A program made the position numbers and the translations under genes. Under the pieces are notes generated by a model. That model saw nothing but the letters and a program-made list of their open reading frames with translations. It ran no database searches and had not been told where the DNA came from. From an uncultured virus (IMG/VR IMGVR_UViG_3300037067_008746) (lineage: Duplodnaviria > Heunggongvirae > Uroviricota > Caudoviricetes), in IMG/VR virus record IMGVR_UViG_3300037067_008746: a stretch of 20,000 nt of DNA; one strand, written 5' to 3'. Below, piece by piece: positions 235-20,000 of this stretch; within the stretch, counting starts at the first letter, position 1; each line of letters opens with the position of its first letter.

Positions 235-236
235 AG

Positions 237-971: not shown

Positions 972-975
972 AGAA

Positions 976-1314: not shown

Positions 1315-1338
1315 CAAGAAAAATTATTCGCACACATC

Positions 1339-1376
1339 TTTTTATATGTTCTCAATCGTTCTGTAATACAAGGTGA
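1339..1376 (+). promoter_or_regulatory. Archaeal TATA box and RBS for the 69-aa gene
   Basis: TTTTTATAT at 1339-1347 and AGGTGA at 1371-1376, 6 nt before ATG 1383. Confidence 0.7.
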
Positions 1377-1382
1377 ACTGTT

Positions 1383-1592
1383 ATGTCGAAGACTATTAAG
1401 CCGGGAGAACTTGCCAACCCGCAGGTTCGTGTAAGGATTTTCAAGAACAAAATGGGATTCATCCACGTTGGAAAGGGAAACCCTGATGCAATCAAAGCTC
1501 AACAGAGTGTGCTGGCTTCCTGCGCTCGCAGCGCCAAGGGACTGAAGGGTGCCGCATTCAGAGCTGAAGTAACCAAGTGCATGAAGAGATGA
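1383..1592 (+). CDS. Small basic protein with PsiF-repeat-like C-terminal half; candidate abundant nucleoprotein
   Basis: 69 aa, K/R rich; QQSVLASCARSAKGLKGAAFRAEVTKCMK fits QQ-x5-C-x3-A..LKG..R..C; own TATA, RBS and downstream hairpin. Confidence 0.7.
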   Translation: MSKTIKPGELANPQVRVRIFKNKMGFIHVGKGNPDAIKAQQSVLASCARSAKGLKGAAFRAEVTKCMKR

Positions 1593-1599
1593 ACAGAAC

Positions 1600-1635
1600 C
1601 CCGTCGCTTCGCGACGGGACAAAAAACAACTTTTT
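1600..1635. terminator. Hairpin with A and T runs between convergent genes
   Basis: CCCGTCGC-ttc-GCGACGGG perfect 8-bp stem (1600-1618), then A6 (1621-1626) and a T run ending at 1635, between stops at 1592 (+) and 1634 (-). Confidence 0.65.
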
Positions 1636-2854: not shown

Positions 2855-2893
2855 GGATGAATATTTATGTCGAGGCAGTATAAAGTATTGACT
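2855..2893. promoter_or_regulatory. Divergent promoter region
   Basis: 39-nt gap between divergent starts (2854 -, 2894 +); TATAAA at 2879-2884 reads TTTATA on the minus strand; ATATTTAT at 2861-2868 could serve the + strand. Confidence 0.5.
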
Positions 2894-3007
2894 ATGATAA
2901 ATAACAGCCATGAGTTACTGAAGAAAAAACAGGAAGCAATACAGGCAATTAAGAAAAAAGTGAAAGAAATCGAAAACAAGAAAATGAATCAACTGAGGGT
3001 GAAATAA
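2894..3007 (+). CDS. 37-aa Lys-rich coiled-coil micro-protein (not in ORF track)
   Basis: MINNSHELLKKKQEAIQAIKKKVKEIENKKMNQLRVK*, translated by hand; fills the gap and stops 1 nt before ATG 3009; contains the GAGGGTGA RBS of the next gene. Confidence 0.55.
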   Translation: MINNSHELLKKKQEAIQAIKKKVKEIENKKMNQLRVK

Positions 3008-3008
3008 G

Positions 3009-6000: not shown

Positions 6001-8471
6001 CAGCAAAACAACTTACCGACATGGGAGATAACATAGGAAAAGACGCAGTAAACTATATGATAAACACTGCAATGGCGCAGGGAACAAACTATTACAACGA
6101 TATAACAAACGCAGTTGAGGAATGGTCTAAAATAGACAACGCGGCGACACCGATACTAGCATCACCGACAGGAGCTACAAAGGCGATATCATCGAAGTCA
6201 ATAGACCTAGATGTGATAACACCAGATCAGCCATGGAAACTAAACGCATTGAGACGAGATAGCAACAAAGTAGAAACATCGACTGGAAAGGTAAGAAAAA
6301 TAGAAGACGTACATGATCTAGCGGCGCTGAGCGATGAAGAAATTGTCGCAATATCAAACAGCGATTACAAATTCGGGATAACAATACAAGATCTGAGAAA
6401 CTACAGAACAAAAGCACAAGACATATTGTCAAGAGACGTGAACGCAGAGATAGAAGACGTGACGGAAAAATTAACAGCGGCAGATAGAATCGGAGATACA
6501 GTAAAAGAAACCGCATACAAAAAACCAAAATCAGAAGCAATACTAATAGATATGGATAGATTAGGATTCAAACCGATCAACATGGAAAATTGGAGAACAG
6601 GAGACAAAACGTGGTCATGGGACGCAAAATCAATGAACACATTGAGTGACAAGGACTTCAAATATTTAACAGAGCGAAACCAAAACGAACTTGCAGTAGT
6701 GTTCAGAGACATAACGATACAAGACATAATGAAAGCACCAATAACAAACGAACGAAAGTCAACACTGATACGAAACTTCGCGACATCGATGACATCAAAT
6801 AACGCGGGAATAACAAAGATAGCAGATGCAACAAGATTGAATGAGCTAGTAGCAAAACAGAACAACGAAATAACAAAACTGATGTCAATGACAGACAACA
6901 TGGAAATAAAGAAACAACAAGAACTGATAAAATCAATCAACGAAGAAATAACACTGGAAAAGAACTCGTTAGAAGTAGCTAAATCGCATGTAGATACGAC
7001 TCCAAAAATACCGAAACCATCACCAATGAAACCAGGGAAAACAGCGCCGTCTAAGGCAGCAAACAATGCGCTGAATGAACTAAAGAAAGGAAACATAGAC
7101 GCGGCAGCAAAGAAACTGGGCGAAGCAAGCACATACAAACGACAAAACCTGATGGCAGACAAAGCAAACTTGCCAAAGTATGATGGAGTAACGATAGCAA
7201 AGATAAGACGGTTGGAAGGAACAGGAGCGCCAGATTCACTGATAAAACAGATGATGAGAGAACGATCAGAATACGCACTACAACAATTAGCAAAACAAGA
7301 CACTGACATGAAGAAGATAGCATTCAAGCTATCGAAAGGAGACGAATTGACAGAAGCAGAGAGATTGAAATTGTGGGACAACGGCGATGACATACGAAAA
7401 CTCGGAAAAGACGCAGCACACACAGACGATGGAAATCTGTTGATAAAAGGATTAACCGACGACGCAATCAAGTCCGGTGATAAGGCAAGAATGCAGAAAC
7501 TGGCCGACGAAATAAAAGCAGACAAGGAAAATTGCGTGAAACTGGGTGAGTGCGCGGGAACATCAGCAATATCATCGACACTATCGAGCGCACTATCATC
7601 AACACCGGTGTTGGCACTAGGCGTACTGACGGCAGCAGGTCTAACGATGACAACGATGACGGACGCCGATGGAAAGATGTGGAAATACGACGCGGACAAA
7701 GAAACTTACTACGAGATAACACAGAACGGACCAAAGACTGTAGACGTGAAGCATAGCTTGGAAGAATCAACTGAAGGACCAGAGAACGTAAATGTTGCAA
7801 TACTACCAGCATGGAAAGCACTGATGAATAGCGAAATACCATTACAATCATGGTACGAAGGATCTACACCAGGATACCAAGGACGAAACGTAGACATGGA
7901 CGAATACATATGTCAGAATTTTGCATTAGATGCAGTCGATGTAATAAACAGTGACACGGACACAAAGAAAGCAAACCTAAAAGCGTATGTAGTAAATATA
8001 TACGGAACGATAACAACTGATAAAACGGACATAGTATCACACGCGCTAGTGATGATAGAAAACGGAAACAAAAAAGTTGGTTCGTATGTAGACCCAGTAA
8101 CAAAACGATCAGTACCAATATACGAAAAAACACTAATAGAACCACAAACAGGACAAACAAGCTACAGTGGAATAGACCTAACATCAACAAACATGATGCT
8201 AGGTTCAGAAACATATGACATAGAACTGATACAACAAATGGAAAACACGACGCAAGAACTCAGAATCGGATATGACACGGGAATAGAAGATATATCAACA
8301 GTGTCAAAAGGAGACATGATAACAAACGTACAAGACGAATACGCACCAGGAATATCACAGACGGTCAGAGAAGCAGTAGATCGCGGAACACCGACTGAAA
8401 TAGCAGAACAAGCACGAATAAGCCCGTGGTGGAGCGAAGGAACAGACAAGAAAATAGTACCAAAAAAGTAA
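3009..8471 (+). CDS. Very large putative virion/ejection protein with C-terminal papain/transglutaminase-like cysteine peptidase domain
   Basis: 1820 aa, RBS GAGGGTGA; largely helical; hydrophobic segments FAAFFLLGGVAG (~5346-5381) and PVLALGVLTAAGLTM (~7604-7650); C-terminal YICQNFA...SHALVMI...LIEPQTG gives a Cys-His-Glu triad. Confidence 0.7.
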   Translation: MVDFNALANAVASNQNIGYNATQSTPAVTRTIEFSPTFSATNTITNTLAQNAAKEVKNLATELQTRNTELKVLTEQTKLPSIKEFTLTVDDMLENSLNTINLIDQSIASAARNIESITTEAILQRNPSLKEIETIQMESLDALALIDALKDTTNADISKLSGTLKSIALTVAMNDQTWLKQQDLSTILNEGLKIGSLTYTPEEIQTNTTLKATLLNNISKTSEMAYKVEDITKDEGLNRYLRSLGYISNVEEFQGAVASKKEINGVTLFEAMRNYQKESGSTNVLKPVLMDVARGPISIEIIQSEEPIQRKATRTIKFDEPTQLSGSQIKKVSTDTLKPIPTENGTYKAQLTDPTGKVTTLRFDSLSDAQTQMAIWESQNPESRRRLSEIVPGKNAVTLVATLTRYNNEGKKIEKNTALRATGSTIEEAQKKLNSTLEKQIESDTNKGIKIVNVEMKTYHKETFDENLIMAVGGTETPLHAANNVATPSKQSLTGSGELLYSAEKQAEIAEAIAKQEQTFANTEYVRLLEPGETILSEETKQQILAEKEKYPYKFVDNSITVIKQDIAPAEYVNIEGHETISGILNAIYKWYLPDNEKLAADGILQKSTVTQYGASFMDVYGQGTRSMDAATALTLARGPVVTTTEYKLTELGEQVRQEIVAKKQSGDIYLTSKILDLDENDQNNLVYGLEFANDDIQLEQMKTDIKNMPAVELARISNTWYGSTAKEVVGEEAFGDAWLDEDVIASIAQIHSGQTVPKLEKIISEITSPYMTGDVTTDFAAFFLLGGVAGEIPDIFNVASKLGKTELVSGALLKVADISKSVDKVGEFVDYAKNAKIEIPYSVINNAVFNAMPISNIAIIPSSGSISKAISSPGMTADIAKLGTTTTNKVDAKITTIVQDYRKTLDAGMSNDAKAAELVLRLAGDDKTIVNAALTEFIGTDPNTIYAVISKGSTKVDPATATTVWERLETANKSYSDLAEAFVKDIITKSDGDPIVAAKQLTDMGDNIGKDAVNYMINTAMAQGTNYYNDITNAVEEWSKIDNAATPILASPTGATKAISSKSIDLDVITPDQPWKLNALRRDSNKVETSTGKVRKIEDVHDLAALSDEEIVAISNSDYKFGITIQDLRNYRTKAQDILSRDVNAEIEDVTEKLTAADRIGDTVKETAYKKPKSEAILIDMDRLGFKPINMENWRTGDKTWSWDAKSMNTLSDKDFKYLTERNQNELAVVFRDITIQDIMKAPITNERKSTLIRNFATSMTSNNAGITKIADATRLNELVAKQNNEITKLMSMTDNMEIKKQQELIKSINEEITLEKNSLEVAKSHVDTTPKIPKPSPMKPGKTAPSKAANNALNELKKGNIDAAAKKLGEASTYKRQNLMADKANLPKYDGVTIAKIRRLEGTGAPDSLIKQMMRERSEYALQQLAKQDTDMKKIAFKLSKGDELTEAERLKLWDNGDDIRKLGKDAAHTDDGNLLIKGLTDDAIKSGDKARMQKLADEIKADKENCVKLGECAGTSAISSTLSSALSSTPVLALGVLTAAGLTMTTMTDADGKMWKYDADKETYYEITQNGPKTVDVKHSLEESTEGPENVNVAILPAWKALMNSEIPLQSWYEGSTPGYQGRNVDMDEYICQNFALDAVDVINSDTDTKKANLKAYVVNIYGTITTDKTDIVSHALVMIENGNKKVGSYVDPVTKRSVPIYEKTLIEPQTGQTSYSGIDLTSTNMMLGSETYDIELIQQMENTTQELRIGYDTGIEDISTVSKGDMITNVQDEYAPGISQTVREAVDRGTPTEIAEQARISPWWSEGTDKKIVPKK

Positions 8472-8485
8472 TGGAGATGATTTAA

Positions 8486-11400
8486 GTGGCAGATGCATGT
8501 TATGGAGAAGGCGACGCGGTGAGTGAACTACTCACCGCATCAAGCAAAACAACAAAAAAAACTACGGCAATATCGACACCATCTGAAATGGGAAAAAACA
8601 AAATAGACAAGATATTGGACCCACTAAGAACACTAGAAAAACAAGCACAAGAACATATAAATGATGCAAAGAAAACAGCAGAAATCGCTAAACAGAAACT
8701 TGACTATGGGAGCAGTGTAGAGCATGGTTCAGCAGGATCAAAGTTAAATGCAGCATTCGCAGACGCACAGGTAAAAGAATATCTAAAAACATTACCAACA
8801 AACGAATATGCAAAAATGCACAGTGATGTGCAGGGATGGTTCGGAGGAGAATTCGGAACACAAGGAGCAATGGCACGACAACTAGAAAAGGCATATAAAG
8901 ACGCAAGAATAGAAAAAATAATGCAATCGTTACCGAACACGAAAACAGGGGAAACAATAAAAGAACATTTAGATGAATTGAGTGGAAGAGGATATCTACA
9001 AGACGGAGATGTAACACAATTCGATATATTCGACAATAGATTAGATGATATCGCGACTATACGACAGAGTGACATATTCGATACATTAGATGCAGGTACA
9101 AGAAATCTCGACACAAATGACAAGATCGACATCGCATTGAGAAAAATAGAAACCGACACGACACTTCGACAAGAATTGCAACGACTGGGACAGGGAGGAG
9201 AAGAAATATATGAATCATTGACCGATGCCGGAAAGAAACAGGCGTCAATCGCACACAAAACAATAGTAAAAGCGGCAGATAAAGACAAAGGATTGACATA
9301 CGCAGACGTGAGATCGGCGCTGGACCAACTGAGAATAATATCAGAACAAGAAAAAGAACTCGCAACAATGAGCGAGACAGCAACACAGTTGAAAGCGACG
9401 ATAATACGTGAAAAGTTGCCGACGACACAATCAATTGATCGAATGTTATCACAAATCGAATCGACGCCGAATATGCGAGACAGGGGCACACTGGAATCAA
9501 TCGAACGAGACATAGAGAAAAACAAAATATTAGAACCAAAACGACAAGAAATAAGACAAAACGACTTCTACGAACAGTACAAAAATCGATTGGACCTGAA
9601 CACAGAAGAAGGAATAACAAAAGCAAGTGAAACATTAGACAACTACACAATAAAGGCGACAAAAGCGAGAACATTGCTAGAAGCAGACGCCGATGATATG
9701 AGAATGAGCGCGTCAATGCGTGGAACACTTGAGCGGGGATTGCAAAATCCAGCAAATATCGATGACATGGTACTAAACAACGCCGAAAAACAGATAACAG
9801 ACATATCAAATGATGAAGTAAATATATTAAACGCAATAAAGGCAAGAGACAGAGACATCCCAACATCGATGAAAAACACACTAACCGACCAAATAGAAGC
9901 GACAAAGAACGGGAAAAAAATAGACGCACAATTGGTGGAGAAGGCAAATAGACAAGCCGATATAATCGAAAACTACAATTTCAACGATATAACAGCAGAC
10001 AACATAGGAGAAAAACTAACAGAACTAAAGAAAAATCTAGGAGATAGCGAAGCAAATGAGTTCATGGGAAGATATTTCGACGAACAATTGAACAAGATAA
10101 ACAATGCCGTAATACCATTAACAAAAAGACAGAACGCTATCATTGATGACATAACGACAAGCATAAAAATAGAAAAACCGCCGATAGAAAAGGAGACGGT
10201 TGATGAACTAGCAGAGATAGTAAACAAAGTAAATTGGTCAGAAAATCGATTGCTGATGGAAAAAATGAGAGTGTTCGGACCACTAGGATACATAGACAAG
10301 CAAAATATATGGAAGGCAATGACAAAGACGGGACTGCGGCCAACTAAATCAATTTGGGGGATAACAAAATTTGGAGTGATCGGATTACCAGCATATTTCA
10401 TGTTTGCAGTATTCATAGAACAAAACGCATTTGAGGCGGTGTTCCAATTCGGATCATTCGGAAAAGAAGATGATTCGGCAGAAACGCTATTGTCTAAGTA
10501 TTTCGGAAAAGATACAATACAAAAGACATTTTTAGCAGGACACGACTTCATAAAAGCAATATACAATGGAATGGGCGCAATACCAATATACGGAGAATAT
10601 TTCCAAGCAATTACTATGATAATGTATTCAAACGTATTAGCACAGGACGGGAATCTGGAAGATATATACAACCACTTGGTAGAAAGAGGATTGGCAATTA
10701 AACTGGACACGCCAGACGAGAAAAACGGACTGCTATGGAGAGAAACAACTCAACTAGAGCGAAACGAAATATATAAAAATGATCCAAAAGCACTGTTCAT
10801 GAACGATGCATCATGGGTAGAAAAACAACTTGGAAACGAAAAGACCGGAATATTCAAACGCGGAAAAAGCGGGGAAGAATTGACAAAAACAAAGGCAATG
10901 GCACTATACTATGCAAACAAGGGAGGATACGACATAAGCATAACGAAATTCGGATTAACATCGGACGACTTGAACGACGAATCGATGATGATCGAAGTAA
11001 ACAAATACGGAGAAAAACACGATATCAGCGAAACGACAATACCATCTGGAAGTGGTGCAACTACAACGTCGGGAGCATATGAAAAGGCAATTGAAAACGC
11101 AATGAAACGTGAAGGACTAACAAGAGAACAAGCCATCCGAAACGTAGACGCTGAAATAAAATTCATGGGCGACCGCGACGGAATGTCAAGAGAAGACGCA
11201 TTACTAAAACTGACCGGGGTCGGGGGAGGAAGCGGAAGCGGCGGTGGAAGCAGTAGTAGAAGCAGTGAAAGCAGCTACGAATACGATGAAAAAAAATCCG
11301 AAACGAAAAAGGCAATGCCATCAGCATCACAGCAGCAATCATTAAACCAGGTGAAACGCGGAGAAAAGGAACTGAGCTACGAAGATGTGAACGCACTGAA

Positions 11401-11623
11401 AGTAGACGGGAAAGTAGACATAAAAACAGCAAAAGAGAATGGAATCGCCATCTCTGATTTAGCAGCAAAAGACAAAGAAGCAACTGTCGAAGGGTTCGAT
11501 GCATACGCTGAACAAATGAAAGAGGACAAGAAGATAGATAAATCCGACTGGACGCAGATGAAAGCAGAAGACAAAGACGCGGCAAGAGAAGCACTGCGAA
11601 GTGCATACGGATGTGGTAACTAA
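8486..11623 (+). CDS. Large helical protein with transmembrane segment; putative virion protein
   Basis: 1045 aa, GTG start after GGAGATGA; charged helical N-terminal part, hydrophobic IWGITKFGVIGLPAYFMFAVFI (~10352-10417), Gly/Ser linker (~11215-11275). Confidence 0.7.
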   Translation: MADACYGEGDAVSELLTASSKTTKKTTAISTPSEMGKNKIDKILDPLRTLEKQAQEHINDAKKTAEIAKQKLDYGSSVEHGSAGSKLNAAFADAQVKEYLKTLPTNEYAKMHSDVQGWFGGEFGTQGAMARQLEKAYKDARIEKIMQSLPNTKTGETIKEHLDELSGRGYLQDGDVTQFDIFDNRLDDIATIRQSDIFDTLDAGTRNLDTNDKIDIALRKIETDTTLRQELQRLGQGGEEIYESLTDAGKKQASIAHKTIVKAADKDKGLTYADVRSALDQLRIISEQEKELATMSETATQLKATIIREKLPTTQSIDRMLSQIESTPNMRDRGTLESIERDIEKNKILEPKRQEIRQNDFYEQYKNRLDLNTEEGITKASETLDNYTIKATKARTLLEADADDMRMSASMRGTLERGLQNPANIDDMVLNNAEKQITDISNDEVNILNAIKARDRDIPTSMKNTLTDQIEATKNGKKIDAQLVEKANRQADIIENYNFNDITADNIGEKLTELKKNLGDSEANEFMGRYFDEQLNKINNAVIPLTKRQNAIIDDITTSIKIEKPPIEKETVDELAEIVNKVNWSENRLLMEKMRVFGPLGYIDKQNIWKAMTKTGLRPTKSIWGITKFGVIGLPAYFMFAVFIEQNAFEAVFQFGSFGKEDDSAETLLSKYFGKDTIQKTFLAGHDFIKAIYNGMGAIPIYGEYFQAITMIMYSNVLAQDGNLEDIYNHLVERGLAIKLDTPDEKNGLLWRETTQLERNEIYKNDPKALFMNDASWVEKQLGNEKTGIFKRGKSGEELTKTKAMALYYANKGGYDISITKFGLTSDDLNDESMMIEVNKYGEKHDISETTIPSGSGATTTSGAYEKAIENAMKREGLTREQAIRNVDAEIKFMGDRDGMSREDALLKLTGVGGGSGSGGGSSSRSSESSYEYDEKKSETKKAMPSASQQQSLNQVKRGEKELSYEDVNALKVDGKVDIKTAKENGIAISDLAAKDKEATVEGFDAYAEQMKEDKKIDKSDWTQMKAEDKDAAREALRSAYGCGN

Positions 11624-13266
11624 TGGCTTGTGCATTAAAAGAAATAGAAAAAATGAAAGCAGACCTACAGAAAGGAGGAATGTCCGAAGCGGAAGCAGAA
11701 AAAGAGATAGCAACATTCATCGTAGTGCCACAAGACATCGTTGACGGCGGACTTGACGATAAAACAATGGTAGACGTTGTAAAATATAACAATTACGGAG
11801 ATCTGAAAACCACAGCATCAAACGAAGTTGCGGAGACGTGGGGAGTAGAGAAAACAATATCGAACGGACTGGAAAACGATGTTGAAATAATAAAAGCGTT
11901 CAAGGCAAAAGACATTGACATAGTAGCAATAGCGAACGTATTGGACGGAAGGTCATGGTACGACATACCACTGGAAACAAAGGGAAAAACAACGGAAGAA
12001 ATAAAGAAAAATGCGTCGGATTTAGTATCATTGGTGGCAGCGGGACATCCAGACGCAGTAAAATTCGTAAACAGCATCGCATCAGCGGCATTAACAGGGA
12101 ACGACGACGCTGAAAAACAATTGATAGCACTATGGGATATTCTTGGAACAGGCGGAATGTCGAAAGAATATGGAACAACGAAACCGGCTGGAAGAATAGA
12201 GCAATTTGAAAAAGTGACTAACGACATATATAACAAATATTACGACAACGTGTATAACGTGATGTATCCAGAAGAGAGCCTGAAGATAGAAAGCGGAAAC
12301 ATCACCTGGACAGATGCATTCGGAGAGAAACATAAAGCAACACTGACAGAAATGGGTGGAGAAGCGGTATATGATCCAACAACACGAACGATGAAAACAC
12401 TAAACGAGAAATATATACAACAAACGATTCAGATAGACAATTACACCAAACTACAATTGAATACGGGGGAATATGCAAAGGCGGTGCTCGCATACATAAT
12501 TGGATATCAGAACATTTCGCCCAATGATGTAAATGCACAAGAAACACTGGCAAACGAATTTGCGACAACCGTGTTTCCGAACGTGGAGAACCCAGCAGCA
12601 AACACAAACATGTGGGCTTGCACTGGATCGGGGTGTCTGGCCGCAAGCGGTAGTGGAAGTGGTGGCGGCGGGGGCGGAGGTGGCGGAGGAGGCGGGGGAG
12701 GGTCATCTGCCGGTAGCATAACAACGGAAATACTGTATATAGAATGCAACGTAACGACCGCATTGGTGTATGATAAATCAACAGGAAAATCAATCGGAAA
12801 CGTAAACGAATCGATAGAACTGACGAAGGGAACATACACAATACAAGTGAAAGCAGAAGGATACACGACGAGGGAAACAGTAATAGAAATAGGAAATTAC
12901 CCGGTATCGAAGACGATAAACCTGACAAAAGTGCCACCAAGCATATCAACATTCATAAACGGAATAGGCGGAATACAAAATCTGACAAAGGAGAAGTATC
13001 TGTATCTATTCTGCATATTGAAAATGCGAATGACATCAATGTATACATGGAAACAACTGGCAGACTCGGTGACGACAGTGCCATCTGCGGCAATACCAAC
13101 ATCGATTACGAAGTATGACGTATTATACATATATTATCTGGTGAACGGAGATGTATCGTCCGCACAAGCTCTGGTGGATGCCGAACAAGTAACATTACTA
13201 AGTGCAACCGGAGACGCGAGTAATGAACTCGATGAAACTGCAATCGGGACAACCGGAGGAATCTGA
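11623..13266 (+). CDS. Putative structural protein with poly-Gly linker and PEGA-like domain
   Basis: 547 aa; TAATG stop/start overlap; Gly run at 12661-12702 followed by LYIECNVTTALVY...GTYTIQVKAEGY (PEGA-like). Confidence 0.75.
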   Translation: MACALKEIEKMKADLQKGGMSEAEAEKEIATFIVVPQDIVDGGLDDKTMVDVVKYNNYGDLKTTASNEVAETWGVEKTISNGLENDVEIIKAFKAKDIDIVAIANVLDGRSWYDIPLETKGKTTEEIKKNASDLVSLVAAGHPDAVKFVNSIASAALTGNDDAEKQLIALWDILGTGGMSKEYGTTKPAGRIEQFEKVTNDIYNKYYDNVYNVMYPEESLKIESGNITWTDAFGEKHKATLTEMGGEAVYDPTTRTMKTLNEKYIQQTIQIDNYTKLQLNTGEYAKAVLAYIIGYQNISPNDVNAQETLANEFATTVFPNVENPAANTNMWACTGSGCLAASGSGSGGGGGGGGGGGGGGSSAGSITTEILYIECNVTTALVYDKSTGKSIGNVNESIELTKGTYTIQVKAEGYTTRETVIEIGNYPVSKTINLTKVPPSISTFINGIGGIQNLTKEKYLYLFCILKMRMTSMYTWKQLADSVTTVPSAAIPTSITKYDVLYIYYLVNGDVSSAQALVDAEQVTLLSATGDASNELDETAIGTTGGI

Positions 13267-14016
13267 TTGGTACTGTATGAGTCAAGAAAAACAACGCTGG
13301 TTGAGGCATTCGGTGAAGAGGGGTGCTTGACAGGCGATAGCTGGATGATAGCCACATTCCAAAACCTAAACGGAGAATTCACGTTGTACTCAGATGACGT
13401 GGAATTTATGTATAACAACCAACAATACTGCATACCAGAAGAAGACGTAGTGAACACGACGCTGATCGTAAGGGAATACAATGGTGTAAGCGCGGATATA
13501 ACCATCGAAGGAGAGGTGATCGGAAAGACAAATCGATTCATACCAATAGAAGCGGGAAATTACACCGCGACGATAAGCGCAGATGGATATGTGCCACAAG
13601 AAATAGCAGTGATAGTAAAAGACAAAACATCAAACGAATACAAATATGTGACACTGATAAAGGAAGAAGAAGAACCAGAGACAAATGGAGAAAGCGAATA
13701 CGGAACGGTGACGCCATTAGGAGCAATTCTAACACCAACAATGAACAACAAAACACCATCACCAATTGTAGCAGGAGACTACAATTGGTTTGGATGGGAA
13801 TTCACAAACACTGGCGACACAGCGTGGAAAGGAATGGTGGGCGTGAAACTGGTAGACACAAGTGGAAACGAGTTCTCGTGGACAGGAGACACAACGAAAA
13901 GGCAATCAATAGCAAAAGGAGAAACCAAGTATCTGTGGGCTTACTGCCTGGTGAATGACACAGTTGACGTAGAAAACATCAAGAACATATTCGCATTACT
14001 GACGAAAACGAATTAA
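13267..14016 (+). CDS. PEGA-like plus Ig-like beta-sandwich protein; candidate adsorption protein
   Basis: 249 aa, TTG start directly after the upstream stop; ADITIEGEVIGKT...GNYTATISADGY (PEGA-like); WEFTNTGDTAW...SIAKGETK (CARDB/Ig-like). Confidence 0.7.
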   Translation: MVLYESRKTTLVEAFGEEGCLTGDSWMIATFQNLNGEFTLYSDDVEFMYNNQQYCIPEEDVVNTTLIVREYNGVSADITIEGEVIGKTNRFIPIEAGNYTATISADGYVPQEIAVIVKDKTSNEYKYVTLIKEEEEPETNGESEYGTVTPLGAILTPTMNNKTPSPIVAGDYNWFGWEFTNTGDTAWKGMVGVKLVDTSGNEFSWTGDTTKRQSIAKGETKYLWAYCLVNDTVDVENIKNIFALLTKTN

Positions 14017-14058
14017 AGACCAAAACCGGAAGGCGCGGTCACGACTCCGCGCCTCGGT
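14017..14058. terminator. GC-rich hairpin between convergent genes
   Basis: AGGCGCGG-tcacgact-CCGCGCCT (14031-14054), extended by ACCG/CGGT (14025-14058); followed on the minus strand by TTTTGGTCTTT. Confidence 0.6.
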
Positions 14059-14152
14059 CCTGGCAGGAAGGAGACACACAGATCCAGCCGACACGAAACG
14101 ACCCCAGATACCACACCAAGTGCTTGAGGTGTATAGGAGAGCACATTGGCAT
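14039..14152 (-). CDS. 37-aa Cys/His micro-protein, possible zinc finger (not in ORF track)
   Basis: MPMCSPIHLKHLVWYLGSFRVGWICVSPSCQDRGAES*; RBS AGGTGGTG 7 nt upstream (14167-14160); stop lies in the hairpin loop. Confidence 0.6.
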   Translation of the reverse strand: MPMCSPIHLKHLVWYLGSFRVGWICVSPSCQDRGAES

Positions 14153-14173
14153 AACAATACACCACCTTTTAGA

Positions 14174-14218
14174 ATAAATATTTATCTATCAGATAGAGCG
14201 AGCAAAAGTATTATAAAG
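14174..14218. promoter_or_regulatory. Divergent promoter with palindromic operator
   Basis: Palindromes ATAAATATTTAT (14174-14185) and TCTATC-A-GATAGA (14185-14197); AAAAGTA-TTATAAA (BRE/TATA, 14204-14217) 25-30 nt upstream of ATG 14241; the TATA also reads TTTATAA on the minus strand. Confidence 0.65.
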
Positions 14219-14240
14219 AAGTATCTCTAATCAGTTTGTC

Positions 14241-14702
14241 ATGAGAAACATGAAGGCGCAGATACTGGCATCCAGAAAAAGGCGGGCAGACCGGCGAACG
14301 AGAAACGACATAAAACACGACATAATGAGAGCAATAAGCAATGACAACACACTAAAGAGAACAAACATTGCCAACAGATGCAACATAAACTACACGGTCG
14401 CAGTAGATTACACCGATGAAATGATGATGATAGACAAAACGATATCACGCGACGAAAAAGGAGTATTCTCGCTAACGGACATGGGCAGAGACGAAATATG
14501 CGAAAAAGAAATGGGAAAGGCCGCAATAACAAAAATAGTAAAAATCGCAATGGAATTCGCAGCAACTGACGTAATAGAATTCACAACAATGAACGGAGGA
14601 ACGTGCAAAGTCTGCGGAAACAGAGTTGTGCGTGGGAAAGGGCACAACGAAATGTGTGCATGGGCAAGACTGAGACAAATATCAAAAACACTGGGGAAAT
14701 AG
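14241..14702 (+). CDS. Archaeal winged-helix transcription regulator (HTH_45-like) with C-terminal zinc finger
   Basis: RRTRNDIKHDIMRAI...KRTNIANRCNINYTVAVDY...FSLTDMG matches the HTH_45 pattern; C-terminal CKVC-x9-H-x3-C. Confidence 0.8.
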   Translation: MRNMKAQILASRKRRADRRTRNDIKHDIMRAISNDNTLKRTNIANRCNINYTVAVDYTDEMMMIDKTISRDEKGVFSLTDMGRDEICEKEMGKAAITKIVKIAMEFAATDVIEFTTMNGGTCKVCGNRVVRGKGHNEMCAWARLRQISKTLGK

Positions 14703-14703
14703 A

Positions 14704-15384
14704 ATGAGCCAGGCACTGAGGGACCAGTTCGGTAATTACCACATAAAAGGAAAGAGCTACAAATCGATTACCACGGTAATAAAAGAAGAATGCCCGCATA
14801 TGGCACTTGATGCGTGGAAAGAAAGAACACCGGACTGGAAAACGGTAGGAAAAAAAGCAGCACTTTATGGAACGATGATGCACGTTCAATTACAGATGCA
14901 AGAACCAGACATCATACCAGTAGACATTCCGAGTGAAATGCCTTACTGGACGTGGCCGGATGACATGGAAGAAGAGCTGGCAGGAAGACTGGCACAATGG
15001 AAGTCACTTAACCTGGTACTCGAAAAACCGTGTCTGATAGAGCACACGATAGTAATAGAGAGGCACGATGCCGATGGTGATGTCCAGTGCGCAGGTACAT
15101 GGGATAGATGGGGGAAGGTAGACGGGATGCTGACGCTGCTGGACTGGAAAAGCTCGAAAAGCCCACAGAAATCACACCGAATTCAGATGGGAGCTTACTA
15201 CATCGGAGCAAAGGACGCGGGGATAGAAGTTGAATGGGGAATGATACCTTACGTGCGAAAAACCAGCATCGAGATCGTCGAAATGTCGCCCAGTGAAATG
15301 CAAGAAGCAGGAGAAAAATTCTTGGAACTAGCCAGAAAGTCTTATCTAAAGGTAAATGGAAAGAAGAACCAATGTCAACTTTGA
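14704..15384 (+). CDS. PD-(D/E)XK superfamily nuclease (RecB/phage exonuclease-like)
   Basis: YKSITTVI, AALYGTMMH, IEHTI, AGTWD, LLDWKSS, IQMGAY motifs. Confidence 0.85.
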   Translation: MSQALRDQFGNYHIKGKSYKSITTVIKEECPHMALDAWKERTPDWKTVGKKAALYGTMMHVQLQMQEPDIIPVDIPSEMPYWTWPDDMEEELAGRLAQWKSLNLVLEKPCLIEHTIVIERHDADGDVQCAGTWDRWGKVDGMLTLLDWKSSKSPQKSHRIQMGAYYIGAKDAGIEVEWGMIPYVRKTSIEIVEMSPSEMQEAGEKFLELARKSYLKVNGKKNQCQL

Positions 15385-15401
15385 TAAAAATGGAGAACTT
15401 A

Positions 15402-15439
15402 GAGTTTATCCCTGCGATCCCACTCGCAGGGAAAATCTC
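15402..15439. other. Intergenic hairpin upstream of the replicase
   Basis: TCCCTGCGA-tcccac-TCGCAGGGA perfect 9-bp stem (15409-15432), imperfectly extended by GAGTTT/AAATCTC. Confidence 0.65.
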
Positions 15440-15459
15440 AAACGCGGTGGTGCAACTAT

Positions 15460-18438
15460 ATGAGCAATGATAACGAAGACGTTAAAGTATTTAAAAATAA
15501 CGGTAAAATCTCAATTCCACATCAACTGTCGGAATTCGAGGGAGCAAGATTCATAATAATAGACAAATCCGTTGGAAAAGGAAAGAAACCAAAAGAGAGA
15601 AAATGGACAACGGAAAAGAACTATTCTGCAACCGAAGCAAAATTACTAGGACATATACGCGGGGGAGGCAACTACGGTGTAGCGACAGGGATATCATGGC
15701 TACACTGTCTCGACATAGACGAAGTTGAGCGAGTAAAAGAACTGGGTATACTGGAAAAGCTACCAAAAACGCTCACAGTATTGACCGGTGGAGAAGGACT
15801 GCATTATTGGTATGAAATAGAAGGGCTACAGAAGAGAATAATATTCTACGATACGGTTTTAAAAGATCCAGACAATGAAGATGAATATTTACACCTAGGA
15901 GAAGTGCAATCTCGTGGAAATTATGCAATTGGACCAAACTGTGTACACGCGAGCGGAAAAAGATATAAAATAATAGACAATTCGCCGATAGCAAAGTTGT
16001 CATATCAAACATTGATGGAAATTCTATCACCACTAAGGACAAAGAAAAAGGACGATAGGCCATCAGCACCAATGAGATTGGGCGAAGGTAAGCACGCGCA
16101 CTGTGAAGTAGAACTGAGCAAAATTGCATGGCCGAGGGGAACAGTAAACGAACTAAAAGGATCAAACGGACGCGAATACAGAGGAGAAAACCCATTTCAC
16201 GGATCAAAACATGGACAAAACTTCTCGGTGAATCCAGGAAAAGGAGTATGGCATTGCTTCAGACACGGATCTGGCGGAGGATGGGTAGAGCTTCTGGCAG
16301 TAAAAGAAGGAATAATTTCATGTGACCAGGCAGGGCATGGTTGTCTGTCGAAAGCACAATACAGGGAAGTGATGCAACGAGCAGAAGACCTGGGACTACT
16401 GGACGAAAAAGCAATAGACGCACCAATAAAAGAAATCGAGCTGGATAGAGAAGTAGTAAAAACAATACCGAGGCAAATCCCAAACGGTGACATGGTGGTG
16501 CTAATCGCCCCACCAAGAACAGGAAAAACACACGCTGTAGTACAATGGTTGCGAGACAACGGAACAGGCAACTACATAACACACACGCACGCGATAGTGG
16601 AGCACGCAATTAAAATCGCAAGAGAACTGGAAATGACTGGTGTGGTATGGGTGGTAGGAATGAGCCAACCAGGCGCTTGCCGCCAAACAGAAACAGGAAA
16701 CTGTTCAACATGCCCACTGAAACACACAAACGAAAATCACATGCAATACGAGCGAAAATCAGCATCACTTTTACACGAACAAAAACTGTTGACGGTAAAA
16801 AACATACCGCTCGATTTGTGTCCATACTATGCACTGAAGGCGGCAGAAAAACATGCGCGATACTGTTTCACGGTGGTAAATAATATCAACAACATAATTC
16901 CGAGAAAATTAACGGTGTTAGATGAAGAACCGGTGCTGTCTCATTTTTACGCGACATCGATTGAAGTGGGAACCATCAAAACGAGGGCAGGAGAAACCGC
17001 CACGAAGAACTACATCACAAAAAGCACACCACTTCAGATAGAGCTAGACAATATATTGAATCAAAAGAAAAAACCAGCAATGAAAGAGTACGCGAAGAAG
17101 ATTCAAGAAATTTCAAAAATCTTCGATGCGGGCGTAGACGAGGGCTGGAAGGTGGGCCAGATCGCAGATGAAATCGAAGACGTGCTGATCGGGTTCGCGC
17201 CAAAGCACCGAGAAATGGCGACTGAGGGAGAGCAAGAGGACGGAGATAACCTGACAATGGACGCCTGTGTGCGATGCCTGGGCAATATCTACCGAGAAGA
17301 GGGCAAATCTCCGGTGAACATAGTGAACAAGCCGGGTGGCTACCAATCAATTTACATCCTAGGAGACGAGAGAAAAACCAGCTACGGGATGGACTGGCTA
17401 AATAAAACGGACAGGGTAATAATAATCGGAGCGACAAAAGCTGAGATTTTCGCCAACGAGTTCGGAGGGCGGGAAATCGTTATCGAGCAGTTCAGATATG
17501 ACGAAAGGTTCATGTTGATAGGCGTTCACAAGGATAAAATAACTGACGACAGAGGATCAAAGACCGCCGATAAAAAGAAGGTGCTGGATATCGGAAAGGC
17601 CATTTGGAGAAACTCAGAAACTGTGGAACGTACACCAATCGTGATATTAACAGGGTCCAAGAAGGAGCAAGAAAAGGTCGCCTCATTGCTAAATGGAGCT
17701 ACGATGGCGAGGAAGGAAAGAGAGGGAGGAATGGAGGCCGAGTTCGTTTCTGGCAAACCTGTGATCATTTTTCAGAATTCTGTCATCTCTAGGGGCCTTG
17801 ACGTCGATCAATACAATGTGCTGCTTGTATACGGTTGCGATTTTGCCCAACCTTTCTGGTCGATAGCAGACGCCGGTATAGCAGCGGCCATAATATCGGA
17901 TGAAACAACAAATTCAGTCCTAAGAATATCGTCAACTTTGAGAACCGACAACAAGAGCTTGAAGATAGTCGTAATGTCCAAAGAAGATTTAGGACGAGTG
18001 AAATACCTCACTGACAAGAGAGTAATGACTACCGATGCAAATGATATTGCGAAAGTTATAAGAAAGATGGGGGTGGGTGGTAGCGTTATTCGAGATGGGA
18101 GGGCTGGAACTAGAGTAATAAAAACAGGAGTTAATTATATCGAGGGAAAGGAGAAATTCATCGAGCTGATATCGAATAGTAATGATATTATAGATGACGA
18201 GATGGTAGAGTCGATGAAGGCTAAAATTCTTTCGTTCTTCAAAGAACAAAAAAGAGCACACGTTAAGATTATTACTATAAAAAAAATTAACGCCGCAATC
18301 GGCAACGGTAAGTATAACGGGATAATTAAGGAGGCAATCAACAGGCTATACTATATGGGAATATTGATAAAAAATGGCAATTCTAAAGAATCTAAATGGG
18401 AATTAAACACGAAATCCGACAATAATAGGCAGAATTAA
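15460..18438 (+). CDS. Replication protein: Prim-Pol + degenerate Zn-ribbon + SF2-like helicase with putative Fe-S cluster + C-terminal wHTH
   Basis: 992 aa; GNYGVATG, LDID, TGGEGLHYWY, YAIGPNCVHASGKRY (Prim-Pol); NPFH...NFSVN...WHCFRH (CHC2-like); APPRTGKT (Walker A), four Cys ending in CPYY, VLDEE (Walker B), SRGLD (motif V). Confidence 0.85.
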   Translation: MSNDNEDVKVFKNNGKISIPHQLSEFEGARFIIIDKSVGKGKKPKERKWTTEKNYSATEAKLLGHIRGGGNYGVATGISWLHCLDIDEVERVKELGILEKLPKTLTVLTGGEGLHYWYEIEGLQKRIIFYDTVLKDPDNEDEYLHLGEVQSRGNYAIGPNCVHASGKRYKIIDNSPIAKLSYQTLMEILSPLRTKKKDDRPSAPMRLGEGKHAHCEVELSKIAWPRGTVNELKGSNGREYRGENPFHGSKHGQNFSVNPGKGVWHCFRHGSGGGWVELLAVKEGIISCDQAGHGCLSKAQYREVMQRAEDLGLLDEKAIDAPIKEIELDREVVKTIPRQIPNGDMVVLIAPPRTGKTHAVVQWLRDNGTGNYITHTHAIVEHAIKIARELEMTGVVWVVGMSQPGACRQTETGNCSTCPLKHTNENHMQYERKSASLLHEQKLLTVKNIPLDLCPYYALKAAEKHARYCFTVVNNINNIIPRKLTVLDEEPVLSHFYATSIEVGTIKTRAGETATKNYITKSTPLQIELDNILNQKKKPAMKEYAKKIQEISKIFDAGVDEGWKVGQIADEIEDVLIGFAPKHREMATEGEQEDGDNLTMDACVRCLGNIYREEGKSPVNIVNKPGGYQSIYILGDERKTSYGMDWLNKTDRVIIIGATKAEIFANEFGGREIVIEQFRYDERFMLIGVHKDKITDDRGSKTADKKKVLDIGKAIWRNSETVERTPIVILTGSKKEQEKVASLLNGATMARKEREGGMEAEFVSGKPVIIFQNSVISRGLDVDQYNVLLVYGCDFAQPFWSIADAGIAAAIISDETTNSVLRISSTLRTDNKSLKIVVMSKEDLGRVKYLTDKRVMTTDANDIAKVIRKMGVGGSVIRDGRAGTRVIKTGVNYIEGKEKFIELISNSNDIIDDEMVESMKAKILSFFKEQKRAHVKIITIKKINAAIGNGKYNGIIKEAINRLYYMGILIKNGNSKESKWELNTKSDNNRQN

Positions 18439-18516
18439 CGAAATCGGCGGGTAGTGTACAATCGGGTTTGGGCTGGAAATGGCGAATCATTTTTATCTCC
18501 AAAAAAATGCGAAATG

Positions 18517-18687
18517 GTGAAGGCTCCTGATAGCGACAATCTAGCCATGTCACGATTTTGCATTTTCGGATTAAAATACAATTGTTGGGCAGTCGAATCC
18601 AAAAAAGGTTACACTGAATTTTATCTCTTATATAGGTAATGCGAAGACGTGAAGGCTCCTGATAGCGATCATCTAGCCAAGTCACGA
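18517..18687 (+). repeat. Two 39-bp direct repeats, period 132 bp; candidate replication origin
   Basis: GTGAAGGCTCCTGATAGCGACAATCTAGCCATGTCACGA (18517-18555) and GTGAAGGCTCCTGATAGCGATCATCTAGCCAAGTCACGA (18649-18687), 36/39 identical; both preceded by TTTTATCTC and AATGCGAA. Confidence 0.85.
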
Positions 18688-18780
18688 AATGCCTCTTGCT
18701 ATCGAATTTTAGCCCTCACTTGCGCATGCTATCGATTGCTCAATTTTTGTGGAAGAGAATCGTCGATCATCGTAGTTACG

Positions 18781-18818
18781 TTTTTATACGCAGCGGGAGA
18801 CTTCGAAAGCAGAAGGTG
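18781..18818 (+). promoter_or_regulatory. TATA box and RBS of the membrane-protein gene
   Basis: TTTTTATA at 18781-18788; AGGTGA ending near 18819, just before ATG 18822 (alternative ATG 18828). Confidence 0.6.
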
Positions 18819-18821
18819 AAA

Positions 18822-19115
18822 ATGTACATGGACGAAATTGAGAAAAATGAAGTCACGCCTGCAATTGCTCCGGCGGAGAACATGAACAGGCCGCTGTGGC
18901 AGAGCCAGCGAGCGTTGCTGTTGACGATAGCGATGTTCCTGTTCACGTTTGTGTTGATGGTGAGCGCGATCTGGAAACCAGTAGACCAGATAGGAATACT
19001 CGCGTTTGGCGGTATAATCGGTGTCGGTTTTGCATACTTCTTTGGTGGGAAAAGTGCAATCGACAAGGCAACATCAGAAGCAAAAACAGGGGAGATACTT
19101 TCAAAATACAAATAA
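18822..19115 (+). CDS. Small two-TM membrane protein, holin-like
   Basis: 97 aa from ATG 18822; hydrophobic ALLLTIAMFLFTFVLMVSAIW and IGILAFGGIIGVGFAYFFG, charged C-tail. Start reassigned from 18696 using the RBS and TATA. Confidence 0.65.
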   Translation: MYMDEIEKNEVTPAIAPAENMNRPLWQSQRALLLTIAMFLFTFVLMVSAIWKPVDQIGILAFGGIIGVGFAYFFGGKSAIDKATSEAKTGEILSKYK

Positions 19116-19207
19116 AAATTCGAATTCGTTGTTTTTTCATAATTTTTTATTGGTTTTTTCATTTTTTAATTATTTTTTGTTTTTTCGTGAGATTTTTGGT
19201 GATTTTT
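19116..19207 (+). terminator. Extended oligo-T tract
   Basis: Many T5-T7 runs directly after the stop at 19115; oligo-T runs terminate archaeal transcription. Confidence 0.6.
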
Positions 19208-19302
19208 CGGGTTGCTATAATAGGGGAGGGGGGAGAGAGAAAGAGAGGAAGAAGAGAAGAAGAAAAGGATAGGTTAGATGGGAGTGAAGGCGAGAAAAGA
19301 AA

Positions 19303-19553
19303 GGATGATTAGGAGAGGGTGAGTGGAAGGAGACGCGAGAAGACAAGGTAAAAGTGAAATTGAATGGTGTTGAATGACGATGAGATACATGAGAGAGATA
19401 GTGAGTGTTGAGACGTGGAAAGTGGTTGTGGCGGTAGCAGCTATGTTGTTATATGGCTACATGTGTGCGATTGCAATAAAAGGACTTGTTAATTGACGGA
19501 TGATTAGCAGATGGTGAGTGGAAGGAATAGCGTGAAGACAAGGTAAAAGTGAA
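19303..19553 (+). repeat. Two 56-bp purine-rich direct repeats, period 195 bp
   Basis: 19303-19358 and 19498-19553 (GGATGATTAG.AGA.GGTGAGTGGAAGGA...GCG.GAAGACAAGGTAAAAGTGAA), 50/56 identical, each followed by a micro-ORF. Confidence 0.85.
19374..19496 (+). CDS. 40-aa single-TM micro-protein (not in ORF track)
   Basis: MTMRYMREIVSVETWKVVVAVAAMLLYGYMCAIAIKGLVN*; lies between the two 56-bp repeats; exact start uncertain (ATGs at 19374, 19380, 19389). Confidence 0.5.
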   Translation: MTMRYMREIVSVETWKVVVAVAAMLLYGYMCAIAIKGLVN

Positions 19554-19575
19554 GATTAATAGGAGTTGAATTGAG

Positions 19576-19674
19576 ATGACATCGAATGGTTGGACATTTG
19601 AGCAGTGGTTTGAGTTTTTGTTCGCAGCAGCAATGGTATTGCCTTTTGTGATCACAAAGATAGTACTGGGGTGA
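19576..19674 (+). CDS. 32-aa hydrophobic micro-protein (not in ORF track)
   Basis: MTSNGWTFEQWFEFLFAAAMVLPFVITKIVLG*; leader AGGAGTTGAATTGAG-ATG. Confidence 0.55.
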   Translation: MTSNGWTFEQWFEFLFAAAMVLPFVITKIVLG

Positions 19675-19680
19675 TTTGAG

Positions 19681-19758
19681 ATGACAGACATTGAATTCCT
19701 GGGGATAGCAGCAATTGTAATGGGTCTTATGTTGTTGGCACTGGAAGTATTGAGGTAG
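19681..19758 (+). CDS. 25-aa single-TM micro-protein (not in ORF track)
   Basis: MTDIEFLGIAAIVMGLMLLALEVLR*; leader GGGTGATTTGAG-ATG whose RBS overlaps the previous stop. Confidence 0.55.
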   Translation: MTDIEFLGIAAIVMGLMLLALEVLR

Positions 19759-19795
19759 TGTAGCCAAGAAGTTGGGTTTTTCAGGGTGATTTGAG

Positions 19796-19945
19796 ATGGT
19801 GACGATCAAGCGGATATTGGATGCAGCATTGGTGTTGAGCATGATTACTGGTATGTTTTGTCTCGCAATAGGGGTGTTGTTTTGGGTGATTGTTTTTATC
19901 AGCACGTTTTGCAAGTGGGACATTGTGCAATTGTTTGTGATTTGA
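19796..19945 (+). CDS. 49-aa hydrophobic micro-protein (not in ORF track)
   Basis: MVTIKRILDAALVLSMITGMFCLAIGVLFWVIVFISTFCKWDIVQLFVI*; identical leader GGGTGATTTGAG-ATG. Confidence 0.55.
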   Translation: MVTIKRILDAALVLSMITGMFCLAIGVLFWVIVFISTFCKWDIVQLFVI

Positions 19946-20000
19946 ACGTGGTATCATCCAGAAGCCCGTTTTTAGCCCCGTAGGGCCACTTTGGCTCCGT

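Follow-up and report, generated by a model that had tools for sequence, protein, structure and literature searches.

We analysed a 20,000-nucleotide (nt) stretch of DNA from an uncultured virus (IMG/VR record IMGVR_UViG_3300037067_008746), referred to below as the window, and in particular an array of very small genes at positions 19303–19945. The interval holds four consecutive open reading frames (ORFs) on the + strand, of 40, 32, 25 and 49 amino acids (aa), which lie where a preliminary description of this DNA had placed them. ORF1 (19374–19496; 38 aa when read from the ATG at 19380) has a charged N-terminus followed by one hydrophobic helix. ORF2 (19576–19674) and ORF3 (19681–19758) each encode one hydrophobic helix, and ORF4 (19796–19945) contains a long hydrophobic stretch of one or two helices. 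The best 17-residue segment of each ORF has a mean Kyte-Doolittle hydropathy of 2.3–2.7, in agreement with the earlier view of each as mainly a hydrophobic helix. The four are also unlike each other at the protein level, as had been described; shuffle p values for the six protein pairs within the window range from 0.02 to 0.88 and none is solid. At the nucleotide level, a 25-nt core with 76% identity (repeat D4) is common to ORF2 and ORF3.

The last three ORFs start behind strong Shine-Dalgarno (SD) sequences. SD pairing, given in kcal/mol with an assumed 10-nt 3' end of 16S rRNA as partner, is −9.1 for ORF2, −11.0 for ORF3 (the strongest in the interval) and −8.9 for ORF4. Among 15 sites of larger genes in the window and in L001, a 7.7-kb metagenome contig described below, 13 give −5.5 to −10.1; the two outlying sites are 14241, with +0.8, and 4885, a non-ATG position that was mis-set, with +2.8. 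Averaged over the 428 ATGs of the + strand, the value is −2.6. Only three of the 20 ATGs in 19303–19960 reach −8 or better, and these are the starts of ORF2, ORF3 and ORF4. When SD pairing is combined with hydrophobicity (Kyte-Doolittle threshold of 1.9, our own choice, here and in the later tests), the filter passes ORF2–4 and nothing else on both strands of the 20-kb window. In L001 the same filter passes nothing but the five ORFs of the array and the gene that follows them, and in the relative L004 it passes only the syntenic 68-aa ORF.

Two kinds of repeated sequence border the ORFs. ORF1 and ORF2 are each preceded by a copy of a 63-nt leader repeat on the + strand (19303–19365 and 19498–19560; repeat D2, 86% identical), and the two copies are 98.6% and 98.7% identical, respectively, in L001. 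BLAST aligns 56 nt of the two copies at 89.3%, that is, 50 of 56, and so recovers the 56-bp repeat reported earlier ahead of these two ORFs. The exact leader that had been reported for ORF3 and ORF4 is also present: the junction GGGTGATTTGAGATG occurs twice on the + strand as an exact repeat (D5), at 19669–19683 with a stop codon, the SD sequence and the ORF3 start codon, and at 19784–19798 with the SD sequence and the ORF4 start codon. The segment 19771–19798 is 96.4% identical in L001. A related 15-mer precedes ORF2 (TGAATTGAGATGACA / TGATTTGAGATGACA, 93%). Within GGGTGATTTGAGATG are an SD sequence (GGTGAT), TGA stops in two frames and an ATG; a third TGA completes stops in all three frames if an A follows the ATG, which is the case in three of the four junction copies of the window and L001. 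The TGA stop of ORF2 sits within the SD sequence of ORF3. The pattern G[GT]GATTTRAGATG is confined to the arrays of the window, L001, L004 and L146. In two complete 69-kb relatives the exact junction is found in the array only, with a count of 0 for the reversed-pattern control; one extra match with one mismatch lies inside coding sequence of one of these genomes. Each leader repeat opens with a 5-codon mini-ORF of the form ATG ATT AG. AG..GG TGA (19305–19322 and 19500–19517), and L004 has a 7-codon mini-ORF at the corresponding leader block. SD pairing of the leader mini-ORFs is weak (−4.6 and −3.2).

The array is the downstream part of a longer unit. Eight runs of T5–T6 lie on the + strand at 19132–19207, spaced by 7–13 nt and mostly by 10–11 nt (repeat family D1); they represent eight of the 23 + strand runs of five or more T in the window. 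This block may act as archaeal oligo-T termination signals for upstream transcription, as bent DNA before the promoter, or as both. Matches to 19131–19189 in contigs from sequencing runs were rejected, as they are low-complexity T-rich sequence of other organisms. The block is followed by a TATA-like motif, GCTATAATAG, at 19214–19223 (+ strand), which is present in a single copy in the window and is the putative promoter. A purine-rich and nearly C-free 5' leader then extends over 19222–19302 of the + strand, beginning with a pure purine run of 48 nt (19222–19269); it is 99.5% identical in L001. Its predicted fold is not beyond that of shuffled sequences (z = −0.14), and the leader alignment gives 0 base pairs. 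The region 18300–20000 contains 0 inverted repeats, and neither the window nor L001 3000–5000 has an Rfam match; no tRNA was found. On the + strand, a T5 run at 19969–19973, 24 nt past the ORF4 stop codon, probably marks the end of the unit and would act as its terminator. A scan for bacterial-type promoters and terminators was set aside because the element is taken to be archaeal.

The preliminary description cautioned that G/T-rich DNA produces such ORFs by chance. This explanation does not survive a comparison with 2000 dinucleotide-preserving shuffles of 19356–19960. The shuffles contain a mean of 1.8 non-overlapping ATG ORFs of at least 25 aa, with four or more in 2% of them (P = 0.02). 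Four hydrophobic ORFs occur in 0 of 2000 shuffles (mean 0.15). As for hydrophobic ORFs that also reach SD pairing of −8 or better, three are observed here, a number again found in 0 of 2000 (mean 0.01, maximum 1). The L001 array is above all 2000 shuffles as well. In the ORF frames, T by codon position is 51% at the second position, versus 26% at the first and 23% at the third. The shuffle outcome and this codon periodicity together indicate that composition alone does not yield the array.

These results bear directly on two other views of the locus. One is that the region is non-coding, either a regulatory RNA or an origin or R-loop region by the primase gene, and that the ORFs are by-products of G/T-rich sequence. 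The strong C depletion, which extends to the non-coding leader (3.4% C in 19200–19373), would suit this view, as would the homopurine tract and phased T runs near the primase gene and a 50-nt direct repeat, and the lack of protein homologues. We nevertheless consider it very improbable, given that hydrophobic ORFs with strong SD sequences almost never arise in shuffles, that codon periodicity is present, that frames and SD sequences survive about 50% divergence in L001, and that the region has neither an Rfam match nor a fold beyond shuffles. The other view takes a 139-aa minus-strand ORF at 19504–19923 as the true gene. This ORF is longer than most found in shuffles (mean longest ORF 71 aa, P = 0.026), but the G-poor strand has few stop codons by composition, SD pairing is absent (+1.3 kcal/mol), and the same strand of L001 is broken into ORFs of 54, 41, 42 and 59 aa. 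It is scarcely credible as an explanation of the locus.

Comparison with L001 provides the clearest picture of how the array varies. The first 3673 nt of this contig match window positions 15427–19099 with 0 mismatches. The promoter and purine leader are 99.5% identical and the first nine codons of ORF1 are 100% identical, whereas the remainder of ORF1 is only 52.6% identical; the two ORF1 alleles still align with z = 13.8. Identity returns to 98.7% over the first 26 codons of ORF2 and drops to 38.5% over the ORF2 tail and ORF3. At the position of ORF3, L001 has an unrelated hydrophobic ORF of 30 aa. The N-terminal segment of ORF4 holds a 97-nt insertion-deletion (indel), and the C-terminal part is 96.3% identical. 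Altogether the L001 array contains five ORFs (39, 32, 30, 35 and 49 aa), all hydrophobic and with SD pairing of −8.5 to −12.6. The N-terminus of window ORF4 aligns with the 35-aa ORF of L001 (z = 10.5), while its last 35 residues are identical to the 49-aa ORF of L001 (P0002), and the two L001 start codons (4349 and 4446) are exactly 97 nt apart. ORF4 is therefore an in-frame chimera of these two ORFs across the 97-nt indel. The turnover is restricted to about 400 nt in otherwise identical genomes.

The variation is a mosaic, and its patches are bounded by the repeated signals. Such a mosaic could in principle arise in an ordinary accessory region, in which a tandemly duplicated and weakly constrained hydrophobic family diverges fast, the signals stay under purifying selection, and the difference from L001 is one imported tract. 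The density of single-nucleotide polymorphisms shifts at about 19291, from 0 differences in the preceding 3864 nt to about 1.5–4% in the conserved segments after it, which fits one imported tract. The 25-nt core shared by ORF2 and ORF3 also fits this account, the 35-aa and 49-aa ORFs of L001 are weakly alike (p = 0.03), and the ORF4 chimera is what unequal crossing-over of tandem paralogues is expected to give. On the other hand, with a neutral divergence of about 50% in the tract, only extreme constraint could keep a 300-nt non-coding leader at 99%; its counterpart in L004 retains only about 74% identity. The protein pairs within the window have no solid similarity, and the variable patches are separate, each bordered by a repeated signal. 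We regard this account as unlikely, yet as the one among the alternatives that deserves most attention.

Both forms of the array are also found within a single sample. Parts of the stretch occur in 20 listed runs from 14 studies, with labels such as landfill, groundwater and wastewater, and variation at the run level was examined in contigs from four of the 24 listed runs. Run X1 yields a 4198-nt contig carrying the L001 version of ORF1, a 376-nt contig with other sequence between 19653 and 19841, and a 300-nt contig that equals window 19595–19894 with 0 differences. Window-type and L001-type contigs are therefore both held by X1, and the two forms co-occur in one run. Run X6 has a window-like ORF1 with two substitutions, both non-synonymous with codons read by eye. 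This run is labelled RNA-Seq, was rated probably DNA, and was rejected as RNA evidence. Gaps in the coverage of the stretch by X5, X6 and X20 were given no meaning. A third ORF1 allele (P0004), on another contig, has 38 aa and is 84% identical over 38 aa.

The earlier proposal that expression signals stay constant while payloads vary is supported by the L001 mosaic, by the presence of both forms in X1, and by a search for the leader and repeat in related genomes, where L004 and L146 keep the signals with other payloads. Scans with leader patterns gave 21 stretches in viral contigs and at least 119 in genome contigs. By BLAST against 143 loci other than L001, real similarity is present in L004 and L006 only, and L004 is identical to IMG/VR record L006; the remaining stretches were dismissed as chance matches. 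The primase upstream of the array is 59% identical in L004 and 64% identical in L146, and both have a T-run block and a purine leader at the same place. The promoter motif CTATAATAGGGG is kept as GGGTT(T)GCTATAATAGGGG in L004 and as TTTTCTATAATAGGGG in L146. Among the leader blocks, AGAAAAGAAAGGATGA, GGTAAAAGTGAAATT and GGAGTTGAATTGA are exact or nearly so in L004, which also has the complete GGTAAAAGTGA block, and L146 shows diverged forms of GGTAAAAGTGAAATT and GGAGTTGAATTGA. Overall the leader of L004 is only about 74% identical to that of the window. The junction has the form GAGGTGATTTAAGATG in both relatives. The payloads are different: L004 encodes a 68-aa protein that has a helix at its N-terminus, and a soluble protein of 88 aa. 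L146 encodes a soluble protein of 65 aa, the 68-aa homologue, two hydrophobic peptides (28 and 23 aa) and a Cys-rich protein of 52 aa. By our criteria the architecture is absent from the more distant loci L002 and L003 (primase 54% identical in both) and L149–L152. Tandem units of about 11–12 nt (GAGAAAGACGT / GAGAAAGACAT types) lie 3' of the primase gene in L003 (1830–2050) and L002 (1870–2065).

The sequence CTATWATAG occurs two or three times per complete 69-kb relative and flanks the array on both sides; the third site of G001 falls within coding sequence. In L146 the TTTTTAGCC motif is also found after the last ORF of the array. The array is followed by a non-coding stretch in the window (19946–20000), L001 (4596–4885), L004 (14394–14562) and L146 (10408–10552), which in L004 and L146 contains short hairpins, e.g. 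CACTTGCC..GGCAAGTG. After the hairpin stretch comes a second CTATWATAG motif inside a palindrome, about 1.25–1.3 kb past the first. The stretch after the array has no Rfam match, and its fold in L001 gives z = −1.11.

Base composition sets the unit apart from its surroundings. The window unit contains 8.3% C, versus 18% for the whole window, and the four units (window, L001, L004 and L146) contain 8.1–8.7% C, versus 15–18% for the whole elements. C is low even with soluble payloads, so the depletion belongs to the unit and not to membrane coding. From the large genes to the four units, third codon positions shift from 0.48 to 0.25–0.34 for A, from 0.22 to 0.29–0.42 for G, from 0.18 to 0.09–0.12 for C and from 0.12 to 0.23–0.25 for T. 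Either a strand-specific mutation bias or codon preferences peculiar to the unit could underlie this shift.

Database searches give little guidance on what the peptides do. ORF1 (the 38-aa form, P0003) and ORF4 (P0001) are called genes in a protein collection. Of ten micro-proteins looked up exactly in the collection of 15 billion proteins, it contains four: ORF4, the 38-aa form of ORF1 and a single further allele for both. Missing from it are ORF2, ORF3 and four of the ORFs of L001. Searches of the micro-proteins against Pfam (E up to 1), PHROGs and PADLOC give nothing past the cut-offs, and the best ESM Atlas score, 0.83, is at chance level. As the micro-proteins are without homologues, their function is a guess.

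One such guess is that they are membrane-damaging toxins or lysis/egress peptides, type I toxin- or holin-like, which would be silenced by antisense RNA or by timing. A length of 25–49 aa, a single helix, tandem arrangement and the 5' untranslated similarity of ORF1 and ORF2 fit the search criteria given in the accessible text of PMC2887945. That text describes ldr/rdl and ibs/sib as tandem type I toxin-antitoxin loci (Fozo et al. 2010), whose hydrophobic peptides of less than 70 aa lie in tandem in one intergenic stretch, show similarity reaching past the coding region and are often missed by gene callers, all of which resembles the array. The long leader also has several SD-like stretches. 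The array differs in that it has no toxin-family homology, with no such match in Pfam, PHROGs or PADLOC, in that its coding parts are not paralogous, and in that its ORFs are chained as an operon by SD-start junctions and are not separate repressed units. Type I toxin mRNAs are typically structured, whereas this leader is unstructured and 0 inverted repeats were found. In the searches reported in the available part of PMC2887945, the known type I families were not found in archaea. Toxins of this kind appear to us an improbable answer.

The array has a defined anatomy, exceeds chance, keeps its signals and varies as a mosaic between them, and it is real, hypervariable and almost certainly coding. 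We favor the reading, on balance probable, that 19303–19945 is the coding part of one + strand unit in which constant signals accompany exchangeable membrane micro-protein payloads. Transcription would start at the TATA-like motif behind the phased oligo-T block and run through the nearly C-free purine leader of about 150 nt, and this C-poor, unstructured mRNA should be easily translated. It would encode four orphan single-pass membrane micro-proteins. Ribosomes would initiate at the ATGs behind SD sequences and re-initiate at the conserved stop-SD-start junction GGTGATTTRAGATG that links the later ORFs, and the peptides would insert into the membrane. While promoter, leader and junction remain near constant, ORF bodies would be swapped, fused and changed in number; the likeliest route is that co-occurring variants recombine, homologously or unequally, within these repeated signals. 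The array had been called recombining in the preliminary description; the mosaic pattern fits, and recombination itself is deduced from it rather than observed. Our guess for the peptides is a role as membrane effectors, expressed early, in conflict between virus and host or between viruses.

Several observations weigh against this reading. The SD pairing of ORF1 is weak in the window (−5.4), where the L001 allele has −8.5. In the window itself, 6 nt and 37 nt separate stop from start, gaps at which coupling cannot be taken for granted. Runs of T5 within the unit at 19615, 19777 and 19893 could terminate archaeal transcription early. The sole contig from an RNA-recorded library (X20; 152 nt, 19185–19320, depth 2.6) includes the putative promoter; it may be DNA carry-over or read-through, and we do not take it as a sign of transcription. 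Among 5.8 billion clusters and 1.84 billion representatives, only the micro-proteins' own alleles were found (P0002 alone among the representatives), ORF2 being outside this query. The variation sample consists of two near-identical genomes, one protein allele, four of 24 runs and two relatives, and for recombination the basis is the mosaic pattern only. No virus hallmark gene was found in the family scans of the window or in the terminase search of two complete relatives.

Several known systems resemble parts of the proposed unit. T4-type phages contain promoter-early stem-loop (PeSL) cassettes, which flank ORFans in hyperplastic regions and mediate their shuffling (Arbiol et al. 2010, PMC2839356). 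According to the accessible portion of that paper, PeSL cassettes are short conserved expression signals repeated among small orphan genes; indels and replacements between very close relatives fall at these signals, which also serve homologous recombination and bring expression along. All three features have their likeness in the array. The repeats themselves are different, with a 63-nt 5' leader and a 14–15-nt stop-SD-start junction in the array and, as that portion of the paper has it, a promoter and terminator hairpin in PeSL. Furthermore, the array has one promoter motif in all and no stem-loop was found in it, its host is probably an archaeon, and the window payloads are all single-helix membrane peptides. 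Excised mini-circles are a further mark of PeSL cassettes, and no circular junction was reported in the contigs of the four runs. Comeau et al. 2014 (PMC4122927) reportedly also concerns the PeSL cassettes of T4-type phages. By analogy, these cassettes are the closest counterpart of the locus in its presumed working, though the array is not one of them.

Gene pairs coupled by termination and reinitiation have been described in archaea, as far as the available text goes (Huber et al. 2019, PMC6728339; also PMC10666635). Stop and start codons are 1 nt apart in L001 (4347/4349), L004 (14125/14127) and L146 (10076/10078 and 10247/10249), with the SD sequence within the last codons of the upstream ORF, and this spacing in the relatives fits termination-reinitiation coupling. 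In most known pairs of the literature cited, the two genes share an overlap (ATGA or TGATG), and their products are often subunits of a single complex, whereas the array reuses one junction several times between unrelated micro-ORFs. Coupling of this kind fits the relatives better than the window. The dark-matter islands of archaeal genomes share other features with the array: in the accessible text of Makarova et al. 2014 (PMC4158269) they contain fast-evolving, lineage-restricted small proteins that are enriched in transmembrane segments, often lie on viruses or plasmids and have a proposed role in conflict. The small, fast-evolving and transmembrane-rich proteins are alike; that text, however, gives whole-genome statistics, with no shared leader or junction architecture and no cassette polymorphism within a population. 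The literature searched contained no description of an equivalent array in archaeal viruses.

Other forms of gene exchange and diversification fit less well. Integron cassettes and phage morons are promoter-proximal arrays of exchangeable small genes, and morons bring their own promoter and terminator. The array ORFs differ from morons in that they have neither a promoter nor a terminator of their own. As for an integron, no integrase was found in the 11 large window ORFs scanned and no attC-like inverted repeats were found. The scanned window ORFs also contain no reverse-transcriptase domain of a diversity-generating retroelement, and the 23 substitutions listed for ORF1 comprise 14 transitions and 9 transversions, a mixture unlike the differences at adenines that distinguish the template and variable repeats of such a retroelement.

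One may go further and picture the unit as a hot spot dedicated to diversification, in which an archaeal virus would nurse its membrane micro-proteins. Its promoter would be strong and its homopurine leader prone to R-loops, and together they would keep the sense strand single-stranded. This exposure would bias mutation to C-to-T and A-to-G, and the third positions of the four units are shifted in this way. The stops, SD sequence and start of the junction would terminate any incoming or new ORF and restart the next one, so that payloads could be swapped, fused or born de novo with expression kept. This extension is doubtful, and we offer it as a speculation.

The locus belongs to a known kind, hyperplastic accessory regions with reusable regulatory modules, and lies in an unstudied element of a probable methanogen. 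Very small membrane proteins are mostly missed by annotation, and little is known of how viruses of methanogens act on their hosts. Compact and easy to recognise, the combination of promoter motif, C-poor leader and reusable junction could serve to collect such peptides from metagenomes. Should they be effectors or exclusion factors, the turnover indicates an interface of active conflict in the methane producers of landfills and digesters, and if the junction works as a frame-independent coupler it would offer a design principle for small-protein expression in archaea.

The element is probably a virus-like replicon of about 70 kb, or a virus, of a methanogen related to Methanothrix, as judged from its sequence. 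The family scan identifies a PrimPol/zinc-ribbon primase of 992 aa at 15460–18438. Among 72,556 plasmids the primase has a single match, to a plasmid of Methanothrix harundinacea (E = 8e-23, with 26.6% identity across 37% of the query), and other genes of the element sit behind TTTTTATA-type boxes and GGTGA-type SD sequences. The plasmid match together with these boxes points to an archaeal, Methanothrix-like host. Searched by tblastn, phage records contain no match to the primase, and nothing was found for it in viral contigs (single query) or in genome contigs; 18400–20000 has no match in phage records by blastn. Two relatives are complete genomes in IMG/VR (69.4 and 69.1 kb), one with direct terminal repeats, and the terminase families PF03237 and PF03354 are absent from both, which bears on whether the element is a virus or a plasmid.

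All large ORFs scanned are on the + strand, except one on the minus strand (1634–2911). The + strand is very A-rich; its large genes have 37–43% A and 16–19% T, and the AT skew reaches 0.51 (window 1–19000). PEGA domains are found in three window ORFs by the Pfam/PHROGs scan, one of them under the Pfam cut-off. The family scan also reveals a winged-helix HTH_45 protein and, at 14704–15384, a Cas4-like PD-(D/E)XK nuclease. The ORFs at 3009–8471 (1820 aa) and 8486–11623 (1045 aa) have no Pfam or PHROG match, and the 1820-aa ORF has no sequence match in the PDB. Directly ahead of the T-run block, a gene at 18822–19115 encodes a protein of 97 aa that includes two hydrophobic stretches. This protein matches no family and is identical in L001; a GTTTTTATAC box and a GGTGA SD sequence lie ahead of it. 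A few kb past the array, L004 encodes a protein with an S-adenosylmethionine-dependent (SAM) methyltransferase domain (19444–19974) and a pentapeptide-repeat protein (19884–20771; E = 1e-54), for which anti-restriction functions are possible. For both ORF4 alleles, window-type P0001 and L001-type P0002, the contig on record has a length of exactly 70,606 nt. The intergenic sequence directly behind the primase gene contains a 50-nt direct repeat (18506–18555 and 18638–18687; 88% identity, copies 132 nt apart), a possible iteron-like origin or regulator site, and L004 has an analogous but unrelated pair at 13018–13067 and 13152–13201 (92%).

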